44,240 nt of DNA from Parcubacteria group bacterium M10-OD1-1 (lineage in GTDB: Bacteria > Patescibacteriota > Minisyncoccia > Moranbacterales > UBA2206): NCBI GenBank assembly GCA_003056145.1, contig LSNL01000007.1:1-44240 (forward strand). Reading direction: 5' to 3'. A program made the position numbers and the translations under genes. Below the pieces are notes generated by a model. The model ran no database searches. It worked only from the letters and a program-made list of their open reading frames with translations, and had not been told where the DNA came from. The first letter of the stretch is position 1. Each line of letters opens with the position of its first letter. Positions 8,834 through 43,950 of the stretch are shown here, in pieces.

Positions 8834-8851
8834 GGTTTTCGCGCTGAAATT

Positions 8852-9922
8852 TTAATTTAATCTTTTAAGAACTTCATCGCCCATTTGTTGAGTAGTCAAC
8901 TGACGGCAACCATCCGACATTATATCGGCTGTCCGTAATCCGTCAGCTATGGTTTTTTTAACTGCTGTTTCAATGACCACAGCTGCTTCCTCCAGATTAA
9001 AACTGTAACGGAGCATCAACGCCAAAGAAAGAATCTGCGCCAAAGGATTAGCAATCCCCTTACCAGCAATATCAGGAGCACTGCCACCAGCTGGCTCGTA
9101 CAGTCCAAAATTGGTTTCTCCATTAATACTTGCACTCGGCAACATACCGAGCGAACCAGTCAGTTGAGCAGCTTCGTCTGACAAAATATCACCAAACATA
9201 TTTGAGCAAAGAATAACATCAAATTGCTTGGGATCGCGAACTAACTGCATCGCCGCATTATCCACATATAGATGACTACATTCCACCTCTGGATATTCAT
9301 TAGCAATTTTGCCAACAATATCCCTCCAAAGCTTACTGCACATTAACACATTGGCCTTATCAATTGAAACAACTTTTTTGTTTCGTTTCATTGCGATTTG
9401 AAAAGCACAATGAGCAATACGTTCAATTTCACTTTGACTGTAAGTCATAGTATCAACAGCAGTATTACCATCGATACTCTTTGGTTCAGCAAAGTAAATT
9501 CCACCGGTCAGCTCTCTAACCACCAAAATACTCAATCCTTTTAAAAATTCTGGTTTCAGAGAAGAAGCGTTCTCAAGACCATCATAAACTATTACTGGTC
9601 GCAAGTTAGCAAATAAACCATATCTTTTGCGCAACGGCAAAAGAGCTCCTTGCTCTGGTGTTAGCTCCGAAGGCAAATCAGCCCATTTGGGACCGCCGAT
9701 ACTACCAAACAAAACGGCAGCAACTTCATCGCATATTTTTTTGGTTTCCTCCGGAAAAGGGTGTCCAGTTTCATCATAAGCAACTCCTCCAATAAGACAA
9801 GTTTGCTTTTCAAATTTGATCCCAAATTCATTTTCAATGACATTTAAAACTCTAAGTGCCTGAGTCATAACCTCAGGACCAATTCCGTCACCCGGTAACA
9901 CAGCTATTTTCTTATTCATCAT
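8852..9922 (-). CDS. leuB: 3-isopropylmalate dehydrogenase
   Basis: [62 protein letters not shown]. Start re-called at ATG 9922 with AAGGAGG SD at 9931-9937. Confidence 0.97.
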
Positions 9923-9938
9923 TTTTTTTACCTCCTTG

Positions 9939-10451
9939 TTAGTAATTTTTAGCAACAAAGCCAACTAGGCCATCTTCACGCACCAGTCGTTCCGCAAATT
10001 CATCTAGCGAAAAACGAAAGATTAAACCATTGTTGCATTTAATCTGTTTCTCATTAAGGTCAACTTCACAATTAACCATTCGTCCGGCTGCGTTAAACAT
10101 CTGATCAATTTCGCTTTGGCTAATTTCAATCGCCAGTAATCCTCTATTGAACATATTTTGTCGAAAAATTCTGGCAAAACTTGGAGCAATCACTACTTTG
10201 AAATCATTTGCCTCAAGCGCCCAAACAGCATGTTCACGAGATGAACCACAACCAAAATTTTCTTGAGCAATTAAAATAGTTGCTTCTTGAAAATCTTGAT
10301 TAGATTGACTAAAGCCCGGCATATCCAAATCCTCAAAAAGATGAGGACCAAGACCACTAATACTAATTCCAGTAAGATACTTAGCAGGAATAATTTGATC
10401 AGTGTCTATGTTTGCACGATCAAGAAAATAAACTTTCTCTTGAATTTTCAT
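9939..10451 (-). CDS. leuD: 3-isopropylmalate dehydratase small subunit
   Basis: [34 protein letters not shown]. Confidence 0.96.
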
Positions 10452-11711
10452 TTATATTACCTCCCTAGGATCAGTTATAAATCCTCGCAAAGCTGTAGCC
10501 GCGGCAGTATCCGGACTCATCAAATGAACTGTACCACCCTTCCCCATACGCCCAGGAAAATTACGGTTAGTTGTAGAAGCACAAACCTCTCCTTTAGCCA
10601 AAACACCGCTAGACATCCCCAAGCAAGCACCACAAGTCGGGTTGGTAAAGCAAGCACCAGCTTGAATAAAAATTTCCGCTAGTCCTTCTTGAATAGCTTG
10701 TATTTGAACTTGGGTTGTGGCTGGAGATACAATCATACGCACGGATTTAGCAATATGTTTACCTTCCAAAATCTTGGCCGCTATTCGCAAATCAGTAATC
10801 CGTCCATTAGTGCAACTACCAAGATAAACTTGATCAACTTTTGTTCCAGCCATTTCAGTAACAGATTTAACTTGACTTGGATTACTACCAAAAGTGACTT
10901 GTGGTTCTAACAAAGATAAATTGAATAAAAGATCTTTGTCATATTGAGCATCACTATCGGGTTGCCAATCCCAAATCAAAGATTCTATTTCTAGATTTCT
11001 CTGTCGGCAGTATTCAAGAGTTTGTCCATCGGGATAACAAAGACCGGAAGTGGCACCAGCTTCAACACTCATATTGCAGATTGTCATCCGACTTTCCATA
11101 TCCATGTTTTCAATAATTGGACCACAAAACTCAATGACATAATCAGTTGCACCTTTTACTCCCAGTTGCGAAATCAGATACAAAATCACATCTTTGGCAT
11201 AAACATTTTCAGATAATTTGCCATCAAGCTGGATTCTCATTGTTTTAGGTTCGCGGAAAAATACTACACCCTTAAGAATTGCTGCTTCTAAATCGGTGGT
11301 GCCGATACCAGCAGCAAATGCTCCAAAAGCGCCGTGAGTACAAGTATGAGAATCGCCACAAACGATGGTCATACCTGGAAGAACATGTCCCTGTTCTGGC
11401 AAAAGAGCGTGACAAACTCCATTACTACCAACATCATAAAACTTAATGTCATGCCGTCTAACCCAATCACGCATTACTTTTCCTTGTAAAGCAGTGGCGC
11501 TGTCTTTAGCTGGATTAACATGGTCAATCAGGGCAACAATCTTATTGGGATTGAAAACTTCATCGCCCCATTTGTTTTGAATATCCAAAATTGCTGGTGG
11601 CGTAGTGATTTCGTGACACATTACCAAATCAACTTCTAAAGCTACTGTACCAGCTGATGGTCGATCAATAATATGACCATCAAAAATCTTTTGAACTAAT
11701 GTCTTACCCAT
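10452..11711 (-). CDS. leuC: 3-isopropylmalate dehydratase large subunit (short ~420 aa type)
   Basis: CHEIT, GVCH, DSHTCTHGA, GSCTNGR, CGACLG (Fe-S cysteines), TNRNFPGRMG. SD AAGGAGG at 11721-11727. Confidence 0.96.
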   Translation of the reverse strand: MGKTLVQKIFDGHIIDRPSAGTVALEVDLVMCHEITTPPAILDIQNKWGDEVFNPNKIVALIDHVNPAKDSATALQGKVMRDWVRRHDIKFYDVGSNGVCHALLPEQGHVLPGMTIVCGDSHTCTHGAFGAFAAGIGTTDLEAAILKGVVFFREPKTMRIQLDGKLSENVYAKDVILYLISQLGVKGATDYVIEFCGPIIENMDMESRMTICNMSVEAGATSGLCYPDGQTLEYCRQRNLEIESLIWDWQPDSDAQYDKDLLFNLSLLEPQVTFGSNPSQVKSVTEMAGTKVDQVYLGSCTNGRITDLRIAAKILEGKHIAKSVRMIVSPATTQVQIQAIQEGLAEIFIQAGACFTNPTCGACLGMSSGVLAKGEVCASTTNRNFPGRMGKGGTVHLMSPDTAAATALRGFITDPREVI

Positions 11712-12056: not shown

Positions 12057-12143
12057 TGGTGCCCGGAGCGAGACTTGAACTCGCACGGTATTACTACCGA
12101 GGGATTTTAAGTCCCTTGTGTCTACCAATTCCACCATCCGGGC
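12057..12143 (-). tRNA. tRNA-Leu (TAA), CCA encoded
   Basis: GCCCGGA...TCCGGGCACCA; anticodon loop CTTAAAA; long variable arm. Confidence 0.97.
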
Positions 12144-12159
12144 TTATAAAAACATTCCT

Positions 12160-12188
12160 ATTATACTTAATTATTTATCTACTGACAA
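12160..12188 (-). promoter_or_regulatory. Sigma70 promoter for tRNA-Leu
   Basis: TTGTCA-17 nt-TATAAT on the minus strand. Confidence 0.7.
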
Positions 12189-12206
12189 ATAATATTTTCC
12201 TTTTTG

Positions 12207-12277
12207 AGGTCGCGCCCGGATTTGAACCGGGGTGAAGGGTTTTGCAGACCCACGCCTAACCGCTCGGCCACACGACC
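12207..12277 (-). tRNA. tRNA-Cys (GCA)
   Basis: GGTCGTG...CGCGACC-T; anticodon loop CTGCAAA; T-loop GTTCAAATC. Confidence 0.97.
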
Positions 12278-23276: not shown

Positions 23277-24341
23277 ATGCCTCTTAAAATTGGTATTGTC
23301 GGACTTCCAAATATAGGAAAATCTACTTTATTTAAAGCTATTACTCAAAATCCTGTTGACATCAACAACTATCCTTTTTGTACTATTGAACCCAATATTG
23401 GAATTGTTAAAGTGCCTGATCATCGCTTAACCAAGCTTTCTGAAATGTCTCATTCAGCTAAAATAATTCCTACCGTTATTGATTTTGTAGATATTGCTGG
23501 TTTAGTTAAAGGTGCTTCTACTGGTGAAGGTTTAGGTAATAAATTTTTAGCCAATATCCGTGAAACCGATGCTATTATTCAAGTTGTTCGAGTTTTTCCT
23601 TTAGCTAAAAACTCTAACGACATTACTCATATTTATAATTCTATTGATCCTGAAAGAGATATTGAAATTATCAATACCGAGCTAATTCTAGCTGATTTGG
23701 AAACCGTCAAAAAAGTGGAAGTCCGACTAGAAAAGGATTTGCGTGGAAATAAAGAAGGTGTTGACACCCAACTTGCCGTTGTAAAAAAAATAAAATCTTT
23801 TTTGGAAAAAGGAAACCTAGCTAATTCAATCAATCTAGATTTTTCTGAAAAAAATACCACCCAAATCATTCGTGAACTTTCTCTTATTACTATGAAACCT
23901 TTCTTGTATATTTATAATGTCAATGAGACAGGTAAAGAGCTTTCTCAAAAACTAGAAGAAAAAAATCATGTTAAGCTAGACATAAAAATTGAAGAAGAGC
24001 TTTTAGAAATGACTACTGAAGAAGCTCAAGAATTAGAAGTACATTCTAAACTAGATAAACTTATTCTTAAAGCCTATGAAGTTCTAGGGCTTATCACTTT
24101 TTTAACTACTGGTGCTGATGAAACTCGCGCCTGGACAATCAAAAAAGGCTGGAAGGCCCCAATGGCTGGAACCGCCATTCATAATGATTTCAAAGACAAA
24201 TTCATTCGAGCAGAAGTTATTCAGTGGAACAAACTATTAGAGGCTGGCTCATGGGGAAAAGCTCGAGAAGTTGGAACACTTCGCCTAGAAGGAAAAGAAT
24301 ACATAGTTCAAGATGGCGATGTAATTGAATTTAAGATTTAA
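23277..24341 (+). CDS. ychF: Redox-regulated ATPase YchF
   Basis: [39 protein letters not shown]-terminal TGS domain. Confidence 0.97.
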
Positions 24342-24351
24342 GCGTTTCCGC

Positions 24352-24380
24352 TTGACGCTTACGCTATTTACTGATAGTAT
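24352..24380 (+). promoter_or_regulatory. Sigma70 promoter of rpsF-ssb-rpsR
   Basis: TTGACG-17-TAGTAT. Confidence 0.8.
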
Positions 24381-24386
24381 AAGTAC

Positions 24387-24480
24387 AACTTAGAAAGTCC
24401 AATTAGCTTTCCCGCCAAGGCTCTGCCTAGGATAGAAAAGCTATAATCCGTCAGAAGGACTTTTGGGCGGATTTTTTATT
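24387..24480 (+). promoter_or_regulatory. Structured rpsF leader (S6:S18-binding-motif-like hairpin plus intrinsic terminator)
   Basis: Stem TAGCTTTC/GAAAAGCTA with a CCG internal loop and CC-AAGGC-TCT-GCCT-AGG hairpin, then terminator AATCCGTC-AGAA..TTTT-G-GGCGGATT-TTTT. Confidence 0.65.
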
Positions 24481-24542
24481 AATTAATAACACTTTTAGTA
24501 TTTAGAATTATTTCTAATACTAATCTGTGAAAATATCAAACT

Positions 24543-25100
24543 ATGCGATACGAATTATTCTACTTAGTTGGAATTTCTCAAGAACCCAATCTAGAAACAA
24601 TTAAAAAAGAAGTTGCCGAGATGGTTACTTCGCTAGGTGGTGTTTTTGAAGAAAAAGAAACCTTAGAAAAAAGAAAGCTATCTTATGAAGTTAAACACGA
24701 AACTCACGGTATTTATATTGCCCAGAGATTTGAGCTAGAAGAAGTTGAAAAAATCAAAGAACTTTTAGCTACCTTGAATCTTTATAATCAAGTTTTACGC
24801 TTTATTATTAGCAAAGCCGATGAACTTCCTCCTCTTAAATCCAAAGAAGAGCGGATTGATGAAGCAGCTAAAAAAGAAGCTATAACTACTTCCAGACGAG
24901 AAAAAGAAGAAAAAATAGCTACTGCCAATAAAGAAGCCCAAGAAGAAAAGTTGAAAGTTTTAGAAAAAAATCAAGAAAAAAAACCAGCCACTAAAGAGAC
25001 TAGAAAAGAACAAAAAGAGAAAAAAGAAGGAGGAGAGAAAGAAGAAAAGAAAACAGATAGCTCTATTGATAAAAAGTTAGAAGAAATTTTAAATATTTAA
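24543..25100 (+). CDS. rpsF: 30S ribosomal protein S6 with long K/E-rich C-terminal tail
   Basis: MRYELFYL, RKLSYEVK, G.Y, VLRFII; followed by ssb and rpsR. Confidence 0.95.
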   Translation: MRYELFYLVGISQEPNLETIKKEVAEMVTSLGGVFEEKETLEKRKLSYEVKHETHGIYIAQRFELEEVEKIKELLATLNLYNQVLRFIISKADELPPLKSKEERIDEAAKKEAITTSRREKEEKIATANKEAQEEKLKVLEKNQEKKPATKETRKEQKEKKEGGEKEEKKTDSSIDKKLEEILNI

Positions 25101-25195
25101 CTTATAATTTTTAAAGATTTTTATTTTGAAGTAAAAGTTAATTAAATAAATTAATTAAAAAACTTTTCTTCTCCAAAATAAAAGTTATAAAAAAT

Positions 25196-25672
25196 ATGAA
25201 TGTCAACAAAGTAATGTTAGTTGGTCGTTTAACTCGCGACCCTGAAGTAAGAAATACCACTTCAGGACAACCAGTAGCTTCTATCAGCTTAGCTACTAAT
25301 AGATTTTGGAAGGACAAAGCTGGGCAAAAACAAGATCAAACTGAATTTCATAATGTAGTACTTTGGGGCAGGTTAGCAGAAATTGCTGGACAATATTTAA
25401 CTAAAGGGCAAGAAGCTTACATTGAAGGACGCCTTCAAACTAGAAAATATACTACTAAAGACGGGATTGAGAGAAGAGTAACTGAAATAGTAGCGGAAAA
25501 TATGCAACTTGGTTCTCGAGCTCAAGGATCTTCTAGACCTAAACCATTTTCTCCCTCTCCAGCACCTACTAACGAGACCACACAACCATCTAAGCCAGTT
25601 GTCGAAGAGATTCCTACTATTAACTTAGACGAAGAAGAGGATGAAATAAAAATAGAGGATGTTCCTTTTTAA
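25196..25672 (+). CDS. ssb: Single-stranded DNA-binding protein
   Basis: NKVMLVGRLTRDPE, TEFHNVVLWG, C-terminal EDVPF. Confidence 0.98.
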   Translation: MNVNKVMLVGRLTRDPEVRNTTSGQPVASISLATNRFWKDKAGQKQDQTEFHNVVLWGRLAEIAGQYLTKGQEAYIEGRLQTRKYTTKDGIERRVTEIVAENMQLGSRAQGSSRPKPFSPSPAPTNETTQPSKPVVEEIPTINLDEEEDEIKIEDVPF

Positions 25673-25711
25673 ATAACTTATTTATTAACCAATCTTATCA
25701 ATTAAAAAAAT

Positions 25712-25930
25712 ATGAATGAAGCTCAAGAAAAAAAGACTTGTTATTTTTGTCAAAACAAAATAGACAAAATAGATTTTAAAGATGCTTACTTGATTAGGCG
25801 TTTTATGAATTCTCAAGGAAAAATTTACCCTAGAAAACGACATGGCACTTGTGCTAAACACCAACGAGTTTTATCTAACGCTATTAAAAAATCTCGAGTG
25901 ATGGCTTTAGTTCCTTTCGTGGCTAGATAA
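25712..25930 (+). CDS. rpsR: 30S ribosomal protein S18
   Basis: CYFC, IDFKD, GKIYPRKRHGTCAKHQR. Confidence 0.97.
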   Translation: MNEAQEKKTCYFCQNKIDKIDFKDAYLIRRFMNSQGKIYPRKRHGTCAKHQRVLSNAIKKSRVMALVPFVAR

Positions 25931-27508: not shown

Positions 27509-27915
27509 GGGGATGTTGTAGATTAGACAGGTTGTACATTTAAAATACGCAAGCCGAGAATGATAAAAAACTCGTTAACTTTTATCAAAAGTTATAAGTG
27601 CAAACTTCATAACCAAAGCAAAATCTGCAATTGCTAACGCTTTTGTACCTAATTTTGCGACTGCTATCGCCTAATCCTGTTTCCCAGGAAGCTTTAGCCA
27701 TCAAACTGTCCACTCCCGATAGACAGAGCTTGGTGTTATATTTCGGGATAGCAAATTTTTTTATTTTCAAGAATTATTTGTAAAACTAAATTGAAAATAA
27801 GTTAAGAAACTTTTTGTTTATTTATTGTTCTTAACTGAAATTACTAAATAAACTAAGCTTGTAGATTATTTTAGGTAAACAATTTTGGACATGGGTGCAA
27901 TTCCCATCATCTCCA
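27509..27915 (+). ncRNA. ssrA: tmRNA
   Basis: GGGGATG/CATCTCC acceptor stem with G.U pair, discriminator A then CC; T-arm ATGGG-TGCAATT-CCCAT; tag ORF 27600-27674 ANFITKAKSAIANAFVPNFATAIA*; directly after smpB. Confidence 0.95.
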
Positions 27916-27951
27916 CCGCTAAAAAATATTTTAATAATTAAAATCAAACCT

Positions 27952-41804: not shown

Positions 41805-41879
41805 TCCGCGATAGCTCAATGGTAGAGCAGTTGACTGTTAATCAATTGGTTGTAGGTTCGAGTCCTACTCGCGGAGCCA
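41805..41879 (+). tRNA. tRNA-Asn (GTT), CCA encoded
   Basis: TCCGCGA...TCGCGGA-GCCA; anticodon loop CTGTTAA. Confidence 0.97.
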
Positions 41880-43877: not shown

Positions 43878-43950
43878 GGGCCATTAGCTCATCTGGTAGA
43901 GCGCATCCATGGCATGGATGAGGTGAGCGGTTCGAGTCCGCTATGGTCCA
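43878..43950 (+). tRNA. tRNA-Ala (GGC)
   Basis: GGGCCAT/ATGGTCC acceptor with G3.U70; anticodon loop ATGGCAT (A32-U38, typical of Ala-GGC). Confidence 0.96.

Follow-up and report, generated by a model that had tools for sequence, protein, structure and literature searches.

The window, by which we mean the whole 44,240-nt stretch of DNA that was analysed, carries on its forward strand the operon rpsF-ssb-rpsR (24543-25930), in which open reading frames and Pfam identified rpsF (24543-25100, Ribosomal_S6), ssb (25196-25672, SSB) and rpsR (25712-25930, Ribosomal_S18). The gene ychF (23277-24341) lies upstream and efp follows rpsR, with YchF and EF-P likewise assigned by Pfam. The 201-nt gap between ychF and rpsF holds the RNA element described here, also on the forward strand, which heads the operon, as an earlier note made from the sequence alone had proposed in calling it an rpsF leader; the promoter named there is present, and all coordinates given there for the hairpin, the terminator and two alternative pairings agree with the sequence. 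The relatives retrieved with the S6 protein bear the names Candidatus Moranbacteria or Moraniibacteriota and belong to the Parcubacteria/Patescibacteria. The S6 protein itself (24543-25100) comprises 185 aa, with the S6 domain at residues 2-91 followed by a Lys/Glu-rich C-terminal tail of ~90 aa, and the S6 open frames of relatives are likewise long (145-229 aa).

The genome had also been described as poor in Shine-Dalgarno (SD) sequences, which was borne out by the finding of GGAG or GAGG upstream of 6 of 40 ORFs, and no SD precedes rpsF in the window. Three of these six ORFs are leuC, leuD and leuB (window 8851-11711), which are preceded by the strong Shine-Dalgarno AAGGAGGU, consistent with a foreign origin of the leu operon, while most other genes of the window have A-rich upstream regions lacking an SD. 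Rfam matches in the window, at 27509-27918, 12060-12277, 41805-41876 and 43878-43950, comprised one tmRNA (122.8 bits) and four tRNAs.

Within the intergenic gap, a promoter occupies 24352-24380, with the −35 element TTGACG at 24352-57, a 17-nt spacer and an extended −10 element TGaTAGTAT at 24372-80, in which the hexamer TAGTAT takes up 24375-80 and the upstream TG 24372-73. This is the clean promoter of the earlier note, and it predicts a transcription start at ~24387-24389. In 45 of 50 relatives, GAAAG is preceded at a distance of 12-16 nt by the pattern TTG(A/C)(C/A)N-17-TAnnnT, the spacing between promoter and leader being constant. A covariance-model match to the whole leader RNA covers 24388-24481 (61.2 bits and E 4.5e-12 with model R1; 70.5 bits with the second model, R2), giving a leader of ~95 nt. 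A search for sequencing runs containing the leader sequence found no RNA run; the runs that contain it behave as DNA, and the contigs are flat over the leader.

The leader contains a hairpin, H (24404-24443), with a lower stem (24407-12 paired with 24435-40) and an upper stem (24415-21 paired with 24425-31) separated by an internal loop in which C24413 and G24414 face A24432, U24433 and A24434. Both stems covary strongly: in 50 leaders, two-sided changes occurred in 6/6 pairs of the lower stem (98% of cells paired) and 4/4 pairs of the upper stem (96.5%), so that all 10 modelled pairs of H are supported, with 96-98% of cells paired. The hairpin that the earlier note had drawn is thus present, covarying and conserved throughout the order. 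The loop bases C, G, A and A are invariant in 50/50 leaders, and the pyrimidine between the two adenines is U in 44 and C in 5; RNAalifold adds a G:Y pair within the loop, which would be G-U in 44 and G-C in 5. A kink-turn reading of this loop was rejected, as tandem G.A pairs are missing from the right register.

The earlier note had further placed a CCG (24412-14) in the internal loop, and this part of its description stood only for the single sequence. In the minimum-energy fold of 24385-24545, H is formed with C24412, C24413 and G24414 in the internal loop. The position of C24412 depends on the register, however, since the comparative register pairs it with G24435 and leaves only C24413 and G24414 unpaired. 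The base preceding the loop C-G is U in ~60% of leaders, so the loop "CCG" is a window-specific reading and only the CG is an invariant feature.

Hairpin H is followed by the junction AAUCCGU (24445-24451, with CCG at 24448-50), which also forms the 5′ base of an intrinsic terminator, T (24445-24479). The terminator stem pairs 24445-56 with 24461-73, with G24465 bulged, and is capped by the loop GGAC (24457-60) and followed by a U-tract at 24472-77. The same minimum-energy fold of 24385-24545 contains this 12-bp hairpin (24445-24473) and then U6, with a fold z-score of −2.56, and 3 of 200 shuffles fold equally well. A simple terminator scan omits this forward-strand terminator because its stem is bulged. 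Comparison across leaders gave two-sided changes in 6/6 modelled pairs of the terminator stem, whose two parts have 92% and 85% paired cells, and a U-rich tail (≥5 U in 9 nt, that is, at least five) in 53 of 59 leaders. RNAalifold independently predicted H together with the base of the terminator stem (4 of the 6 modelled pairs). What the earlier note had drawn as a terminator at 24445-24477 is therefore a real, covarying intrinsic terminator, kept order-wide.

Taking H and the terminator stem together, 16/16 modelled pairs show two-sided changes. For the whole structure, 93.9% of cells are paired in 50 leaders as against 79% in shuffled ones, a value that 0 of 500 shuffles equalled, and sliding the partners by 1-3 columns makes the pairing collapse. 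As a whole-leader MAFFT alignment mis-registers the 3′ half, it was replaced by a curated seed and by alignments fitted to the covariance model, which are biased towards the model's own structure.

The structured RNA has a clean promoter on one side and a strong terminator on the other, and terminated leaders often accumulate, which raises the question whether these ~90 nt are a small RNA gene in their own right that merely neighbours rpsF, rpsF being promoted separately. The distance from terminator to ATG, 62 nt in the window, would leave room for this, and across the 30 closest relatives it ranges from 11 to 104 nt. In 12 of these 30, however, the end of the U-tract lies only 11-29 nt from the ATG, too short for a promoter; no conserved downstream promoter was seen, and the position and orientation of the element before rpsF are invariable. 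We consider a separate small RNA gene very improbable. A leaderless rpsF promoter within the U-tract of the short-spacer relatives was also tried and set aside, as no −35/−10 pair recurred consistently.

The spacer between terminator and rpsF has features of its own. The 62-nt spacer of the window includes an AT-rich 12-bp hairpin with one bulged U at 24495-24523, for which no conservation was seen in relatives. Six relatives with long spacers (L004, L023, L029, L038, L105 and L035) carry between terminator and ATG a second hairpin, AAUCCGCC-UNNG-GGCGGAU, that echoes the word at the terminator base, and in four spacers (L021, L033, L035 and L011) there is a long hairpin whose 5′ arm begins within the terminator U-tract. 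Such spacer hairpins of relatives may offer the protein another site or lock the read-through form. In L014, L022, L034, L042, L045 and L072, the spacer just upstream of rpsF is filled by short tandem repeats with units of 7-11 nt (e.g. GTTACGGGTTA and CGTTAACC).

To describe the distribution of the element, covariance model R1 was built from 12 leaders. In the 866-kb genome to which the window belongs, its sole significant match is 24388-24481. R1 recovers 50 of 51 loci of the order and, with filters off, 8 of 9 later additions. The second model, R2, matches 145 of 201 genomes of the order Candidatus Moranbacteria and 0 of 396 genomes elsewhere in the phylum; its misses are concentrated in families f7 and f9, whose leaders were identified by eye. 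The R2 match is present once per genome except in one genome (G056), which has two. There, contig 4 carries near-identical leader copies 1.1 kb apart (L064 at 81950-82056 and L068 at 80813-80919) that share their downstream flank, the upstream copy heading a different ORF, which looks like a recent segmental duplication. Class-level matches of R1 (24-29 bits; L062, L063 and L065-L067) lie away from rpsF, look like A-rich sequence plus a terminator, and were discarded.

Upstream regions of rpsF were read in 60 genomes (30 of the same family, 29 from the order's other 11 families, and G063), and the element precedes rpsF in all 60, whichever gene lies upstream. At 6 rpsF loci of other orders, leaders are short or missing and the element is absent. 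The 30 same-family leaders have the promoter TTGACt-17-TAnAcT and then a uniform layout from 5′ to 3′: AGAAAGUCC; a hairpin of the form ..YCGCY-variable-RGAYAR..; AAUCCGY, with a short stretch rich in purines; GGNCUUUCU; a stem partner for CCGY; and the U-tract. This layout recurs in the 29 leaders from the other families and in G063. Large insertions occur exactly at helix tips and junctions, namely at the hairpin apex (L011, L014 and L017), in the terminator loop (L004, L029, L034, L035 and L037) and between the 5′ strand and the hairpin (L022); the hairpin insertions include a conserved insert of ~70 nt (..GACCCUCGACCCGCCUACGCUAnnGCUUCGGCGCGGUAAG).

A search of the leader against Rfam 15, which presumably includes the Chlorobi S6:S18 motif, returned nothing at the gathering threshold; at E = 10 it returned only L10_leader (15 bits, E 2.7), over the terminator part. 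The Rfam S6:S18 search that the earlier note had put forward came back empty: RF02893 finds nothing in the window, even with the cut-off relaxed to E = 10, and none of 61 genomes of the order is matched. As a control, RF02893 scores the E. coli leader at 110 bits and matches E. coli alone among 14 control genomes, so the model is narrow and its silence here says little. Conversely, R1 has no match to the E. coli rpsF leader. The leader is a genuine, order-wide RNA family that Rfam does not contain.

A third helix, P1, competes with the terminator. The extreme 5′ segment of the leader, strand a (AGAAAGUCC, 24392-24400), is near-invariant in 50 leaders, and its partner, strand a′ (GGACUUUU, 24457-24464), lies in the terminator loop and the 3′ upper strand of the terminator stem; P1 pairs 24393-24400 with 24457-24464. 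The earlier note had recognized the core of this helix as the complementarity of AAAGTCC (24394-400) to GGACTTT (24457-63) and had said that it disrupts the terminator, which the comparison supports, and the pairing is kept in every family of the order. The P1 duplex has an energy of −10.5 kcal/mol, which 0 of 200 shuffles attain, and 92% of its cells are paired across leaders, position 11 being U-G in 24, U-A in 13 and C-G in 5. Compensated forms of P1 occur in L107 (AUAAAGCCC:GGGUUUUAU), in L108 (AGAAAAGUCC:GGAUUUUUCU, where an additional A is met by an additional U) and in L046 (GUCCCGCGC:GCGCGGGAC). Independent covariation within P1 is limited: it is mostly conserved sequence that backs the helix, and independent compensatory events are few in the main family.

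The location of a′ relative to the terminator differs among families. In most, it occupies the loop and the 3′ upper strand; in L046 it is the 5′ strand of the terminator, and in family f9 it is the 3′ base and the U-tract. Because AGAAAGUCC finds its partner GGACUUUC within the terminator in all families, in three registers, P1 can be read as an antiterminator, and the three registers argue that conservation concerns the rivalry of P1 with the terminator. By an automated count in which some boundaries are mis-set, P1 overlaps paired terminator bases in 59/59 leaders. A terminator/antiterminator architecture is very probable. A pairing of strand a with the 3′ end of 16S rRNA (CCUCCUUUCU) was tried and dropped, just 6 nt matching without independent support.

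The second alternative pairing of the earlier note fared differently. There, CCGCCAAGG (24412-20) was said to pair with TTTTGGGCGG (24461-70), with CCGCC meeting GGGCGG (24466-70) as the antiterminator, and S6:S18 bound to the CCG at 24412-14 was thought to hide CCGCC from GGGCGG and so spare the terminator. The pairing is feasible in the window, and all 5 pairs can form in 19 of 50 relatives, both sides being conserved G/C-rich words. Across leaders, however, 81.4% of its cells are paired, no more than the 82.0% of shuffled controls, and 418 out of 500 of these equal it; covariation across relatives, which the note had called for, thus supports H and the terminator stem and does not support this pairing. 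The variants of the 3′ word b′ (GAUGG, GGAGG, GGUGG and GGCAG) are not tracked by the YCGCY word of the hairpin, as b′ covaries with b instead. The pairing would also need the strongly covarying hairpin H to be unfolded, and the U that stands ahead of the loop C-G in so many leaders speaks against it as well. We regard this mechanism as hardly credible.

Folding calculations bear on which of the two states would form. When transcripts are cut directly after a′, the minimum-energy fold includes P1 in 37 of 42 leaders. In full-length transcripts of these leaders, the P1 state lies on average 2.8 kcal/mol above the minimum (−21.2 vs −24.0 kcal/mol in the window). An automated calculation, with several terminator boundaries mis-set, gave a median of −10.7 kcal/mol for the P1 duplex and of −11.2 kcal/mol for the terminator. 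From these modelled folds we infer that P1 would form first and that read-through would be the default. An additional hairpin, which is among the insertions seen in the terminator loop, would turn the P1 state into a three-way junction.

The two helices might alternatively be parts of a constitutive structure, either a pseudoknot of P1 and the terminator base or a leaky, fixed attenuator that also ends read-through from ychF, with regulation through mRNA stability or translation. The gene ychF (stop at 24341) lacks a terminator of its own ahead of the leader promoter, and the U-tract lies close to the ATG in 12 of the 30 closest relatives; both points were counted for this reading. Terminator loops of 11-15 nt hold a′ almost entirely, so that a pseudoknot is topologically possible, and in the large-loop leaders L009, L024 and L044 P1 and the terminator base might coexist in this way. 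Against a constitutive structure, a′ shares nucleotides with the terminator stem or U-tract in f9 and L046, making the folds mutually exclusive there; the near-equal energies of the two states are kept over 42 leaders; and the element accompanies rpsF even where ychF is not upstream. This explanation appears rather improbable, and we return to a regulated choice between P1 and the terminator.

The S6:S18 complex is the candidate effector favoured here. In the canonical S6:S18 motif, a hairpin H2 stands inside a stem H1, with a 3′ bulge carrying CC(R) 2-3 nt before the SD, beside the start codon (Matelska 2013, PMC3854524; Fu 2014, PMC3895269); the S6:S18 protein contacts the bulge and adjoining parts of H1 and H2 and represses translation (Babina 2015, PMC4647458), and it needs the enclosing helix H1 (PMC3895269). 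Like that motif, the present element is a 5′ leader whose operon has rpsF as its first gene and contains rpsR, and as in Firmicutes rpsF operons ssb lies between the two; that the operon encodes both S6 and S18 was counted for the link. Both RNAs have a hairpin of variable length with a conserved base region, followed on its 3′ side by an A/U-rich stretch, a CCG and, 1-2 nt on, a purine tract. The 16S rRNA of the window's organism retains the CCR junction (as CCAA) and helix h23a.

Local alignment brought out a specific resemblance. In the RF02893 alignment, the E. coli segment CAGACAGGAGGCUGAAUAAUCCGUAAGGAG runs from the 3′ side of the internal loop through the 3′ strand of H2 and the CCG bulge to the SD strand, and this core is collinear with the present leader (GAUAAGAGGAU-AAUUAUCCGC-AAGGA) over the 3′ strand of its hairpin H, its junction and its purine tract. 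The 30-nt E. coli core has a mean score of 9.24, whereas 1314 natural E. coli decoys average 6.43 ± 0.52 and not one equals it; the score is 5.4 sd above both these decoys and shuffles. With whole leaders, the mean local score is 10.1 against 7.74 ± 0.44 for shuffled sequences, and the 12 best of 768 sequence windows all overlap the leader. The E. coli UCCG falls on (U/C/A)CC in 41 of 59 leaders. The counterpart of the canonical CCG in this alignment is therefore 24448-50, which belongs to the 5′ arm of the terminator, and not 24412-14, so that of the S6:S18-type leader claimed by the earlier note the likeness to the contact core stands and the choice of CCG does not. E. coli H2, too, has an internal loop, of 2 nt by 5 nt and reading ..GACA, which was counted for the link. 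A candidate mimic of 16S helix h23a in the leader (CCGCAAGGAAAGGC; CCAAAGGCGAAGGC in the organism's own rRNA) was rejected because neither the sequence nor the length of the region from b to a′ is constant within the order.

A CCR (CCG, CCA, CCC or CCU) follows H in most leaders and is absent from L051 and L108 of family f6; it is base-paired in the terminator fold. The purine tract after the CCG probably corresponds, by sequence and spacing, to the SD strand of H1. It pairs with a downstream pyrimidine tract to form the top of the terminator, the first two of these pairs covarying, and this upper terminator stem looks, again from spacing and sequence, like the counterpart of H1. Strand a vies for the same pyrimidine tract, as H3 vies with H1 in Firmicutes and Actinobacteria (PMC3895269). 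P1, for its part, encloses H with a 3′ junction of 15-25 nt, where the canonical motif has a bulge of 8-23 nt.

The element departs from the S6:S18 motif in several ways. RF02893 does not match it; no SD is sequestered, and the start codon lies 62 nt past the element; the pyrimidine partner of the purine tract is downstream rather than upstream, with the CCG paired in that form; and the expected output is transcription termination rather than a block of translation. In a genome so poor in SD sequences, hiding an SD would be unworkable.

Taking these observations together, we propose, with confidence no better than even, that the element is a divergent S6:S18 leader rewired from hiding an SD to attenuating transcription in cis, with read-through as the default and the protein favouring the terminator. 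Transcription would begin ~4 nt ahead of strand a (AGAAAGUCC), and hairpin H would fold second, presenting the invariant C-G/A-Y-A loop and followed by the A/U-rich junction, the CCG and the purine tract. The emerging pyrimidine tract a′ (GGACUUUU) could then pair with the waiting strand a to form P1, allowing read-through into rpsF. Alternatively, a′ and the purine tract could pair locally and zip down to AAUCCGU:GGCGGAUU, completing the terminator, and the transcript would stop at U6. Without protein, P1 would win; surplus S6:S18, bound to H, the junction and the purine-tract helix as counterparts of the canonical H2, CC bulge and H1, would favour the terminator, amounting to negative feedback. 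While we infer regulated termination, S6:S18 as its effector and the sign of the response alike, the identity of the effector seems to us somewhat on the likely side. Against this model, the canonical CC is paired in the finished terminator and is missing from the f6 leaders L051 and L108. Moreover, if P1 were the equivalent of H1, protein binding would lead to read-through, the wrong sign for feedback.

The same switch could work with another effector or the opposite sign, a protein or small molecule stabilizing the P1-closed domain and turning the operon on by antitermination. P1 encloses a conserved domain, much as in ligand-stabilized riboswitch aptamers, and in L046 a single segment serves both as 3′ strand of P1 and as 5′ strand of the terminator, a classic ON arrangement. 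The only universally invariant unpaired bases are those in the loop of H, not those of the CCG; the CC is missing from some f6 leaders; and no Rfam family matches. The element occurs strictly together with rpsF, however, in a single copy per genome, and ribosomal-protein operons are known for negative autoregulation. The pocket is also very small for a metabolite, and an ON switch would not account for the collinear alignment with the S6:S18 contact core of E. coli. We therefore judge another effector or sign unlikely, and quite unlikely in the particular form in which a ligand or factor stabilizing P1 and the H loop licenses the S6-SSB-S18 operon by antitermination in an order of the ultrasmall bacteria of the Candidate Phyla Radiation (CPR); were that form true, it would be a new sensor class governing ribosome synthesis.

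Returning to the rewired S6:S18 leader, its proposed logic has precedents. Attenuation by ribosomal-protein leaders operates in the L10(L12)4 rplJL leader of B. subtilis (PMC4538822), the L20 infC leader and the E. coli S10 leader controlled by L4 (cited in PMC4647458). In these, as proposed here, a protein-binding RNA chooses between a terminator and an alternative fold, and surplus protein represses default read-through. They involve another protein and another RNA fold, and in the present leader the antiterminator strand comes from the very 5′ end of the RNA and pairs into the terminator, with no anti-antiterminator helix evident. In the B. subtilis pyrG attenuator, the nascent 5′ end likewise pairs with the pyrimidine-rich part of the terminator and prevents termination, the pairing strand being made by reiterative G addition at low CTP; in the present leader that strand is encoded, and the controlled gene differs. 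A lineage-restricted leader before rpsF-ssb-rpsR that is distinct from the widespread motif also has a precedent in the S6:S18 Chlorobi r-leader candidate, from a different phylum (Eckert and Weinberg 2020, PMC7247131). With the Chlorobi rpsF leader and the L10, L20 and L4 attenuators as precedents, the leader extends known systems.

Our literature searches turned up neither an rpsF leader coupled to a terminator nor a ribosomal-protein leader from CPR bacteria. To our knowledge, almost no RNA regulators have been described in CPR bacteria. The leader adds a well-supported structured RNA family, compact at ~95 nt, and is the first such leader that we have found reported for the CPR. If the proposed mechanism is true, it would be the first transcription-level form of the S6:S18 feedback switch, joining the S6:S18 contact core to a terminator/antiterminator platform in bacteria where most genes lack an SD. 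Babina et al. expected other expression platforms for the rpsF leader (PMC4647458), none of which has been described so far, and the present leader would be such an additional platform. It would then show how a regulatory RNA is rewired once its host's mode of translation initiation changes.
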